Of a DNA stretch of 64,000 nucleotides, positions 47,096 to 63,148 are shown one piece after another. Each line of letters opens with the position of its first letter. Position 1 is the first letter of the stretch. The stretch is taken from sequence record PQ819470.1. One strand, 5' to 3'. Both the position numbers and the translations under genes were made by a program. The notes under the pieces were generated by a model. The model was not told the origin of the DNA and made no database searches. It saw only the letters and a list, made by a program, of their open reading frames with translations. This stretch comes from Escherichia phage ev_rybdy3.

Positions 47096-47104
47096 TAATG
47101 TATA
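47096..47104 (+). promoter_or_regulatory. Putative phage-sigma-dependent promoter element (TAATGTATA)
   Basis: Exact motif about 37 nt upstream of ATG at 47141. Confidence 0.5.
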
Positions 47105-47140
47105 CTCCTTAGTGTACACTGATATATTAAGGAGTTCTAA

Positions 47141-47458
47141 ATGGCAGACCATGTAGGAAAGAGAGATTATGCACAAGAAAGACGTACCGCAATTGCCCGT
47201 GGTGAAACAGGCGTTGGGAGCAAGAGCGGAGATGCTCAGCGCCACCGTGCACGTCGCATCGTTGAAAAGCGCGATGGAAAAGCTGCTGTCAGAGGTAAAG
47301 ATGTTGGACACAAACGAGCTGTCAAGTCTGGAGGCTCTAATGCGTCAAGCAACTTACGTGTTGAATCAGTCAGCTCAAACCGTTCAAACGGCGGCAAAAG
47401 TGGTGATCGAGCTGGAAAAGCGGCTGGAGCACGCAAAGGAGCTTTAAGCTCATCGTAA
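47141..47458 (+). CDS. Small basic low-complexity protein (Arg/Lys/Gly/Ser-rich)
   Basis: AAGGAG SD 7 nt upstream; codon third-position bias matches phage genes; flanked by promoter motif and strong terminator. Confidence 0.5.
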   Translation: MADHVGKRDYAQERRTAIARGETGVGSKSGDAQRHRARRIVEKRDGKAAVRGKDVGHKRAVKSGGSNASSNLRVESVSSNRSNGGKSGDRAGKAAGARKGALSSS

Positions 47459-47463
47459 TATGA

Positions 47464-61600: not shown

Positions 61601-63101
61601 AACCTTCAGGCATACCTTTCAGTTTCTTCAACCCACCGATAGCTTTCTTCATCTCTGGAGAAACATTATCAGCCATCTTCTGTAGTTCAGTAGCTTTCTC
61701 TACAAAGTTATTAAAATCTTCACCTTCGCGAGCTTTGAATCGATTTGCTTCATTGTAGAAAGTCTTGTAAGCATCAATGAAATCACGGTCAGCTTGTGTA
61801 CGATTCTTAATATCAATCGGACTACCAGTAAAATCACCAGAAGCTCGGAGAGAAGTTAATTCACGGTCTAGGTTATCTAGAACATCTGTAAGAGCTTTCG
61901 TGTTGTCTTTGGTGTAGTCAGCCATTGCATCCTTCATAGCAACAGCCTGCTTCTGGTTGTGCTCATTATCAGCAAATGCTTTACCACGAGTCTTAGCAGG
62001 AGAAGCTAAAGGATTAAGGCCCGGAATGTTGGAATGTTCTTTCTGAACAGAAGCAGCTTTCTCAGCACGAGCTTGGTCAGTATTAAGAATACGCTGAGCA
62101 GCAGGAGAATCCACAGCAACAGCATCTGTAATACGGAATCCATTCTCATCCAGAAGATTCAGAGCAGAAGCAGCGTTAGCAGTTTCAGCTTTAGAGTAAG
62201 CTTCTTTCAGTTCATCAATGTTCTTAGCACTACGAATTAGTTCATCATCAGCAGCAATATCAGTCTTCGCATACTCTGGAGTATTCTTGAAGACAGCAGA
62301 ATCCGGACGGCTAATCAAACCATGAACCCCACCAACTGCACCACCGAATGCAGCACCCATAGCACCTTCTTCGATAGCACCTTCTAATACATTAGCAAAG
62401 GTTGTGTCATCTCCGTGCTTATTCTGAGCTTCAGCAGCACCTACAAGAGCACCACCTTTAGCACCAGCCACTGCGTTACTAGCAACGTTCTGACCAATAC
62501 GTCCAAGTGTGGACTCAGCTGTACCAACAGCACCCGGAAGGATTCTCTGAGCCGCATAGTTAGCACCACCAACTAAGGCTGCATCTAGAATAGACTTATC
62601 TTCTCCCTCTTCAGGGGTTTGGTCTGCATATGCGCGACCTGTCTCACGACCTGCTATGATAGCAGCAGCAGCCAATGGGTTAGCAACTGTCAAACCGATA
62701 TCACCAGCAACGCCAGCATACTGACCGACAGTTTTACCAATCCCACCCTCAATCTTATCCATACGTTCTTTCAGAAGGTTCTGAGAGTTCTCTTGGATAC
62801 GCTTACCATAACTAGTCTGTACTCCAGCTAGATTCTCACCAATCTCAACTAAACCACCAATACCTTTAGCAGCACTAGCTGCAATATTTGCACCACCAGA
62901 TTGAAGAGCATTTGACACACCTTGAGCAAACTCACCTATAGCACCACGTTCTTCTTGTTGTGGTTGTGCTACTGGTTGTTCCTCAGGAATAGAGCCACCT
63001 GCTGCCTTATATTGTTCTCTCATTTGAGCTTGTTGCTCCGGAGAGGCATTCAGATACGCAGGAGCTTTGGAAGCTTCTTCCCACGGTTTAATGTTAGCCA
63101 T
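58680..63101 (-). CDS. Large virion protein (1473 aa; putative internal/ejection or tail-associated protein)
   Basis: ATG at 63101 with AAAGGAG SD; Gly/Ala-rich N-terminal region, extensive coiled-coil; TAATGTATA motif upstream. Confidence 0.6.
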   Translation of the reverse strand: MANIKPWEEASKAPAYLNASPEQQAQMREQYKAAGGSIPEEQPVAQPQQEERGAIGEFAQGVSNALQSGGANIAASAAKGIGGLVEIGENLAGVQTSYGKRIQENSQNLLKERMDKIEGGIGKTVGQYAGVAGDIGLTVANPLAAAAIIAGRETGRAYADQTPEEGEDKSILDAALVGGANYAAQRILPGAVGTAESTLGRIGQNVASNAVAGAKGGALVGAAEAQNKHGDDTTFANVLEGAIEEGAMGAAFGGAVGGVHGLISRPDSAVFKNTPEYAKTDIAADDELIRSAKNIDELKEAYSKAETANAASALNLLDENGFRITDAVAVDSPAAQRILNTDQARAEKAASVQKEHSNIPGLNPLASPAKTRGKAFADNEHNQKQAVAMKDAMADYTKDNTKALTDVLDNLDRELTSLRASGDFTGSPIDIKNRTQADRDFIDAYKTFYNEANRFKAREGEDFNNFVEKATELQKMADNVSPEMKKAIGGLKKLKGMPEGFNPIQDAYTLNNTAKFMSNQDRGWTSLTDDGFREASSPSLVMNTLGAAKYALNRFSSQRARSQRVKQQESNSEAIRSLARGDLEVARAKSTADEARAKMEEEPVVDDIKFKTQNDVETEPVREPSSSTVTEENLPSSAPQETPLTARDLVAQRRAIRQAEQRRAEEEAAAAQEAPVEQAPQAEPLPARNPLEERRAMEQQRAQEEAAQAPEPTVEEPTVKAEPLPARAPKAPKEAVQDVKPASGVERLAAMSSAARQATKDRAERFARSLYSKAAKAKATAENFLAYKGDPKELMRRIRQEDNAINTERHEEMARNQLASQQGIATAKNNTVRTNFAEWVKERGLPEDIATKALRAEEKGLGGNVTNLDSLKRRAERLYQKQREDEFDRLYQQALEENKAFDKKDAPKLVDQKKELQSEIDTLIDSEPLRPAQKDAMRKLMNDFVDGKFKSSEKAGREEALEVGQMKDIWDGFINTYNREVNAFNKANKNSQYEAAAKHLQAREERLATLRKKAQARSDAKAAVENERKTLEAIAAQKSEIEKMMEGLPKPVREAQESRTLKQLAAHHDKNSPVPPEKFRSYIERIHNAESDYLDRQRRLTDAEEDARQAKWNKMYEQAEEMNRKFDVDKRVKRSEELKAAQERENDLMAVQRQRDDIHRRLMRTMEDKGISREDAEAFAGSYMDNRYALLEKPMTPTEHQNARSRIEADVEKFAKKYESMTPIEKEIVKVTGDTEGKLDNLDVDTRKAIEEAQKVDSDIKKLQEEELEMEKVRSALPDDERSQASSDILESIKQQEEAFADKAEKAFLNGKSLDELASVAEVLDRVHGADKAGNNRRFVRALQTAAENKKKYGDNPVAWFSADDYSAIAKLGASSAGGNKSRALEKIFGSTAEQAKSKLLGRDDVAKMRRVIEENPDIKIPSYKTTNRTEYLKFLEKFNDEGKPKIKRGSLSEKLERSKRQSRLRVRVRPKE

Positions 63102-63139
63102 AACGTCTCCTTTTATAAATAAAAATGTCCTACCCCCTA

Positions 63140-63148
63140 TATACATTA
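63140..63148 (-). promoter_or_regulatory. Putative phage-sigma-dependent late promoter element (TAATGTATA, minus strand)
   Basis: Exact motif about 40 nt upstream of the 1473-aa gene start; track's longer ORF start lies inside this motif. Confidence 0.5.

Follow-up and report, generated by a model that had tools for sequence, protein, structure and literature searches.

gp36-type promoters of the kuravirus ev_rybdy3 and a candidate antisense promoter next to gene 40

Promoter elements of the window and their genes

We analysed a stretch of 64,000 nucleotides from Escherichia phage ev_rybdy3 (PQ819470.1, hereafter the window), in which the 9-mer TAATGTATA is present in five exact copies (Table 1). 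Four of them lie before genes for a 250-aa virion structural protein, a 105-aa protein, a putative single-stranded DNA-binding protein (SSB) and a 1473-aa virion protein; the fifth, which we call P40as, points leftward from the spacer between genes 41 and 40. The window also encodes a phage sigma factor of the gp36 type and an ortholog of the small protein gp79. The record of phage ev_rybdy8 (PQ819471.1) is 100% identical to the window and phiEco32 is 94.6% identical over 12.5 kb; on the strength of these identities the window belongs to Kuravirus, as a phiEco32-like phage.

In phiEco32, six promoters are recognised by the phage sigma factor gp36 when bound to host core RNA polymerase (Lavysh et al., 2022, PMC8948821, summarising Pavlova et al., 2012). 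They precede genes 6, 13 and 26 (late) and 40, 58 and 68 (middle), and their consensus is one conserved element, tAATGTAtA, with +1 located 6-8 bp downstream (PMC8948821). Table S3 of that paper gives TAATGTAgA for P6, TAATGTATA for P13, P26, P40 and P58, and aAATGTATA for P68, and lists the same elements for five further relatives. We located the six published sites in phiEco32 at positions 1677, 9101 and 26014 (+) and at 36632, 42937 and 46862 (-). At all six orthologous positions of the window the core sequences agree with Table S3 base for base (PMC8948821), and all six lie on the coding strand before orthologs of phiEco32 genes 6, 13, 26, 40, 58 and 68. The downstream open reading frames (ORFs) of 157, 250, 1473, 248, 105 and 109 aa correspond to phi32_6, phi32_13, phi32_26, phi32_40, phi32_58 and phi32_68, and the gene order agrees as well. 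We concluded that the TAATGTATA repeats are, with high confidence, the -10-type core of middle and late promoters read by gp36. This six-promoter system is already known from phiEco32. Its gp36 dependence, start sites and temporal classes would carry over to ev_rybdy3 by near-identity; what the present analysis itself shows is the sequence, the agreement in gene order, the statistics, the conservation and the identities of the sigma factor and gp79. Positions relative to the start site follow the numbering of PMC12276001, where the 9-mer spans -15 to -7 and +1 lies 7 nt past the element.

Table 1. Promoter elements, associated genes and related features of the window, in order of position.
Feature	Position	Strand	Predicted +1	Remarks
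P13 target	2253..1501	-		250-aa virion structural gene
P13 (late)	2287..2295	-	2280	exact TAATGTATA at -15..-7; ortholog of phiEco32 9101-9109
P6 (late)	9806..9814	-	9799	TAATGTAGA; ortholog of phiEco32 1677-1685
Near-motif	11475..11483	-		TAATGTATT; terminal-repeat region; AGGGGA at -39..-34
gp79 ortholog	35805..36053	+		82/82 residues identical to phiEco32 gp79
P68 -35 region	41955..41967	+		TTGGTAGTAGATA at -39..-27; contains published contacts -37G and -34A
P68 (middle)	41979..41987	+	41994	AAATGTATA; gene 68 homolog 42027..42356
P58 (middle)	47096..47104	+	47111	exact TAATGTATA; 105-aa gene 58 homolog 47141..47458
Non-coding transcript of P40as (predicted)	53012..53180	-	53180	5' hairpin at +1/+2, conserved multi-stem region, long hairpin 53088-53023
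P40as (candidate)	53187..53195	-	53180	exact TAATGTATA; leftward, antisense to middle genes
P40as -35 region	53207..53219	-		TTGGTAGTAGATA at -39..-27, identical to P68
P40 (middle)	53248..53256	+	53263	exact TAATGTATA; gene 40 homolog 53316..54062, putative SSB
Sigma factor gene, gp36 ortholog	55077..55721	+		listed ORF begins one codon earlier, at 55074
P26 target	63101..58680	-		1473-aa virion protein gene
P26 (late)	63140..63148	-	63133	exact TAATGTATA; TAAGACTTA at -38..-30

The five exact copies compare with 0.60 expected in the window, and none of 100 dinucleotide-preserving shuffles reached five. The one-mismatch class showed no enrichment (14 sites found vs. 19.8 expected in the window), so one-mismatch variants need context to count. 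Intergenic DNA makes up 8.9% of the phiEco32 genome, and all 7/7 homologous sites (the six promoters and P40as) are intergenic.

A preliminary description of this DNA, made from its letters alone, had proposed a phiEco32-type set of promoters read by the phage's own sigma factor, and the agreement with Table S3 at matching positions (PMC8948821) bears this out. The genome-wide motif search that it named as a check found, in the rebuilt complete genome (public record, 77,792 bp), the same five exact copies and no others, in keeping with the above-chance count in the window. Its coordinates and strands for the exact sites at P13, P58, P40 and P26 were correct, but it overlooked the copy at P40as. 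As to the one-mismatch variants it listed, the site at 41979 is P68, whereas the site at 11483-11475 lies in the terminal repeat and is not among the published promoters; P6, the actual sixth of these, was omitted. The suggested distance of 35-60 nt upstream of the gene is a rough fit: from motif start to start codon we counted 42 nt at P13, 45 nt at P58, 47 nt at P26 and 48 nt at P68, but 68 nt at P40. Likewise, the assignment to late genes stands for P6, P13 and P26, whereas P40, P58 and P68 are middle promoters (PMC8948821).

The phage sigma factor and the -35 region

The product of the sigma gene was compared with gp36 of the published structure (PDB 9M7Y, chain F). The two are identical at 213/214 residues (99.5%); the preliminary description had listed this ORF as encoding a sigma-family protein. 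The sole change, V29M, lies away from all published DNA-contact residues of gp36, and the published contact set (E79, H80, Y83, R84, W90, S91, S94, N95, Y186 and R187; PMC12276001) is unchanged in ev_rybdy3. The Pfam model Sigma70_r2 gave a sub-threshold match (19.2 bits vs. a cut-off of 24 bits, E 0.0011), and in PDB 9M7Y gp36 adopts sigma2-like and sigma4-like folds (PMC12276001). In phiEco32, gp79 is an inhibitor of the sigma70 holoenzyme and a co-activator of the gp36 holoenzyme (PMC12276001). Directly upstream of the sigma gene we noted a sigma70-type match, TGGACA-18-TATAAT (11/12; 55026-55055 (+)); the same kind of match upstream of the sigma ortholog was described in the SU10 paper (PMC4281155).

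The cryo-electron microscopy (cryo-EM) structure of a gp79/gp36/RNA polymerase open complex was determined on P68 (Xu et al., 2025, PMC12276001). The N-terminal domain of gp36 reads A-14, A-13, T-12 and G-11, and DNA melting extends from -11 to +2. In the sigma4-like C-terminal domain, R187 reads G-37 and Y186 reads the T opposite A-34. Mutation of the bases read by gp36 abolishes transcription, and gp79 moves sigma70 region 4 out of place and braces the C-terminal domain of gp36 (PMC12276001). Because the C-terminal domain also reads the -35 region, the single conserved element of the preliminary description is true of the older account of these promoters, but not of the contacts at -37 and -34 known since the 2025 structure (PMC12276001). 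By analogy, the product of 55077..55721 would take the place of sigma70 on host core RNA polymerase from mid-infection. Its sigma2-like N-terminal domain would read A-14, A-13, T-12 and G-11, with melting from -11, and its sigma4-like C-terminal domain would touch the -35 region at G-37 and A-34. The gp79 ortholog (35805..36053) would evict sigma70 region 4 and brace the C-terminal domain, and transcription would begin about 7 nt past the element.

The published -35 contacts, G-37 and A-34, were defined on P68 only, and we examined the corresponding positions elsewhere. T-38, R-37, R-36 and A-34 are present in 7/7 sites of the window (the six published promoters and P40as). Position -37 is G in P6, P40, P68 and P40as, and A in P13, P26 and P58. 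Conservation was scored on orthologous promoters of ten phages, which gave 34 distinct sequences. Within each promoter class the 9-mer is invariant; A-34 and R-36 were found in 34/34 sequences, T-38 in 30/34 and R-37 in 32/34, and the positions from -33 to -16 are variable. The -35 contact is established on P68, and the invariant A-34 in this alignment suggests that it is general. The bipartite pattern TRRNA-N19-AATGTA gave eight matches in the window vs. 1.16 expected, seven of which are the six published promoters and P40as; the pattern was built from the same sites and only its specificity is informative. The eighth match (AAATGTACC, 43298-43327 (-)) lies inside a gene and was rejected.

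Longer upstream boxes are shared by some of the promoters. P68 and P40as have TTGGTAGTAGATA in common, and TAAGAC[CT]TA at -38..-30 is common to the late promoters P13 (2310-2318 (-)) and P26 (63163-63171 (-)). The boxes TTGGTAGTAGATA (P68, P40as) and TAAGACCTA (P13, P26) may define promoter subclasses. Together, the invariant A-34 and the shared extended boxes suggest subclass-specific upstream determinants in promoters described as single-element ones, and such determinants might bear on middle vs. late firing. TAAGAC[CT]TA has five copies in the window; besides those at P13 and P26, one at 54993-55001 (+) adjoins the near-motif TAATGTTTA (55002-55010), 72 nt 5' of the sigma gene. This near-motif was set aside, as it lies within the gp37 ORF and has neither G-37 nor A-34.

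Some local features of the six promoters were also recorded. Upstream of P13, TTAAGA occupies -39..-34 and a terminator hairpin (2350-2327) adjoins; at P6, the -35 sequence TTGGGA falls in the loop and stem of a terminator hairpin (9845-9830). A 1488-aa ORF version of the P26 target begins at an ATG within the P26 motif, and the 1473-aa reading from 63101 matches phi32_26. The P40 motif is part of a palindrome, TAATGTATA-T-TATACATAA (53248-53266), which is found in phiEco32 too and gives a one-mismatch copy, TTATGTATA, on the opposite strand. The product of gene 40 has an acidic C-terminus (...YEDDNDSPF, 54042-54062 (+)), as bacterial SSBs do, and its homologs are named ssDNA-binding protein in two public records; a Pfam search of the product returned no domain. 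In the leaders of P58 (47105-47140 (+)) and P13 (2254-2286 (-)), a hairpin between an anti-Shine-Dalgarno and a Shine-Dalgarno sequence is possible, with arms CTCCTTA...TAAGGAG and TTCTTTGT...ACAAGGAG, respectively. The 5' arm straddles the predicted +1, so RNAs initiated at P58 or P13 would lack this arm and read-through RNAs would have the Shine-Dalgarno sequence sequestered.

Two near-motifs outside the published set deserve mention. The terminal-repeat site (11483-11475) is some 45 nt away from the physical left end as placed by comparison with phiEco32 and Paul, the left end of the relatives mapping near 11528. In seven phages this site reads TAATGTATT, TAATGAATA or AAATGTATA, with the AATG core and -37G/-34A kept; because the whole repeat is highly conserved, the conservation of the site says little. 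Just downstream of it, ACGGGGA occurs three times (terminal-repeat region 11400-11530 (-)). The sequence TAATATATA, with G-11 changed to A, lies in intergenic DNA 21 nt before the holin gene, at 1515-1523 of PQ819471.1 (outside the window) and at 14828-14836 of phiEco32, and is not a published promoter.

A conserved antisense site next to gene 40

P40as lies 53 bp from P40 on the opposite strand, within the 306-nt spacer between genes 41 and 40, and carries every published gp36 recognition determinant. The spacing from TTGGTAGTAGATA to the core is 11 nt at both P40as and P68, and the 13-mer has only these two copies in the window. phiEco32 has the same arrangement, at 36704-36712. Core and -35 box are kept in 18/18 distinct Kuravirus and Suseptimavirus sequences, and the 11 nt that separate them change freely. 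The published six-promoter lists consulted (PMC8948821) do not include P40as, which the 2012 primary study may have examined. Judged by its determinants, P40as would be a gp36 promoter, and it is likely to function in the leftward direction.

More distant relatives retain an element with an AATG core ahead of their gene 40 homolog. ECO319P1 has TAATGTATA (572-580 of the compared stretch) and Privateer TAATGTAAA (619-627), both with short spacers, and wAATGGATA is present in three IMG/VR contigs whose gp40 is 67-69% identical (around 1075-1090 of the compared stretches). In these three contigs no antisense site was found next to gene 40. An IMG/VR scan for the -35 box plus core returned mostly the same isolates, with no added diversity. 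From the sequences compared, Kuravirus and Suseptimavirus seem to be the only groups with the antisense unit.

The block downstream of P40as is near-invariant among phages that are 80-95% identical elsewhere, and one internal module of it occurs in two unrelated versions. We found no conserved minus-strand ORF downstream of P40as, and an Rfam scan of 52300-53500 gave no match at E <= 1. The hairpin at +1/+2 has the stem AGAGTTA/TAACTCT in the window and in MN05, and ATAGCT/AGCTAT or ATAGCT/AGTTAT in the other phages; two pairs are changed on both sides, and a G-C pair becomes G-U in three sequences. The consensus fold reaches -39.2 kcal/mol in the minus sense vs. -30.0 kcal/mol in the plus sense and includes seven invariant G.U pairs, and the z-scores for single sequences are -2.8 (minus) and -3.4 (plus). 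No other helix shows variation; support by covariation comes from one helix and essentially one lineage event, and the observed score was reached in 5/500 shuffles. The distant relatives (ECO319P1, Privateer and the IMG/VR contigs) contributed no extra covariation. The long hairpin 53088-53023 has TTTTTAT behind it on the plus strand and is probably the terminator of the converging middle transcripts, after gene 41. On the minus strand the U-tract is poor, so that any 3' end assigned to the putative RNA is provisional.

It is plausible that P40as drives a discrete functional non-coding RNA. Such an RNA would begin with the 5' hairpin and would end at, or read through, the hairpin that terminates the converging middle transcripts; its role could be regulatory or that of a replication primer. 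Taken as a whole, the proposal of a seventh, unreported gp36 promoter (53195 to 53187, +1 53180) giving a structured, roughly 170-nt non-coding RNA, with subclass-specific -35 boxes in addition, is put forward as a tentative one. If true, this would be the first non-coding RNA in the sigma regulon of this phage group, and the phiEco32 programme would gain an RNA component from a conserved antisense promoter whose target is structured and non-coding.

P40as may instead not be a productive promoter, being conserved as a DNA-level element (a replication origin or a regulator-binding site) or as one half of a divergent pair that aids P40. We regard this account as possible, without being inclined to rely on it. 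It would explain the lack of an ORF and of a clear minus-strand terminator downstream, the plus-strand terminator character of the long hairpin, the invariance of most predicted pairs, with covariation in one helix only, and the absence of P40as from the published six. It fits less well with the presence of all published gp36 determinants, including 13 nt shared with P68 at the same offset, and with the retention of both boxes in 18/18 sequences while the spacer varies freely. Moreover, the hairpin at the predicted +1 keeps its pairing through different sequences, and the minus-sense fold is better than the plus-sense fold by about 9 kcal/mol, with its seven invariant G.U pairs. A replication origin in particular finds no support in the GC skew, which shows no feature at 53 kb, nor is the DNA downstream of +1 AT-rich.

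Gene 41 (52902-53009 (+)) encodes a 35-aa hydrophobic peptide, MVTYILYFLAFLGIIFLSIILEFGLSKLVNYLGSK, and is convergent with the putative antisense RNA. A type I toxin-antitoxin pair formed by this peptide and the antisense RNA was considered and rejected, since Paul, NC-B, E20-1, XT32 and TH43 are without gene 41 yet keep P40as and the block.

Other readings of the element and comparison with known systems

Several observations weigh against gp36 as the reader of these elements. Start sites and gp36 dependence are predictions carried over from phiEco32, and a literature search turned up no kuravirus transcriptome; P40as as a gp36 promoter is a prediction from sequence. G-37, which is critical on P68, is replaced by A in P13, P26 and P58, and the -35 contact may vary by promoter. 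At P6, the predicted +1 (9799) is only 5 nt before the ATG at 9794, so that the leader would be 5 nt long and the Shine-Dalgarno sequence AGGAG would sit 5' of this +1. Two further points of this kind would favour a reading of the elements as host sigma70 promoters (-10 or extended -10), with the phage sigma factor incidental: P40 reads TATAATgtata in the window, with a weak -35 (10/12 match), and the SU10 authors suggest dual recognition, in that some middle promoters are maybe also read by sigma70 (PMC4281155). P6 also overlaps a 9/12 sigma70-like match. However, the TATAAT of P40 is not conserved, phiEco32 having gcgTAATG; the conserved G-11 and T-12 fit the gp36 contacts and not TATAAT; and in the published in vitro assays, P26 and P68 were transcribed by the gp36 holoenzyme, with a stimulating effect of gp79, the protein that turns sigma70 off (PMC12276001). 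We consider the host sigma70 reading very improbable.

Functionless chance occurrence of an AT-rich 9-mer in a genome with 42% GC, for which the unenriched one-mismatch sites, mostly within genes, might speak, is refuted by the excess of exact copies over expectation and shuffles, by the intergenic position of every site, by the placement of all six published sites on the coding strand just 5' of start codons, by a 9-mer that stays unchanged across diverged relatives while its flanks vary, and by sequence identity to experimentally mapped promoters.

Reading by gp36 is thus retained for the six promoters. As found here they represent no new biology, but a known scheme transferred to one more isolate, useful for annotation and engineering of a therapy-relevant phage group.

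T4 late promoters offer a parallel: there, too, a diverged phage-encoded sigma factor, gp55, reads one short AT-rich element near -10 (TATAAATA), as gp36 does. T4 gp55, which has no sigma4-like domain, relies on gp33 and on the sliding clamp gp45. By contrast, gp36 has a sigma4-like C-terminal domain that touches the -35 region and is braced by gp79. A likeness to AsiA/MotA of T4 was drawn by the authors of the gp36 structure, since in both cases a small protein of the phage puts sigma70 region 4 out of action and at once enables middle-gene transcription (PMC12276001); T4, however, keeps sigma70 and uses MotA for specificity, whereas here the phage sigma factor replaces sigma70.

Salmonella phage 7-11 is a related phage with an elongated head (C3), its own sigma factor and promoters at corresponding genome positions (PMC8948821). 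It differs in that its gp47-dependent late promoters have a two-part consensus, GTAAtg-(16)-aCTA, its sigma factor is only about 15% identical, and it has neither a gp79 homolog nor a middle class (PMC8948821). The closest system is that of phiEco32 (Pavlova et al., 2012, cited in PMC8948821; Lavysh et al., 2022; Xu et al., 2025, PMC12276001, PDB 9M7Y). Small differences from phiEco32 are found in the promoter flanks, with TAAGACTTA vs. TAAGACCTA at P26 and ttaTAATG vs. gcgTAATG at P40; the genome architecture is the same, and the window is a member of the phiEco32 family.

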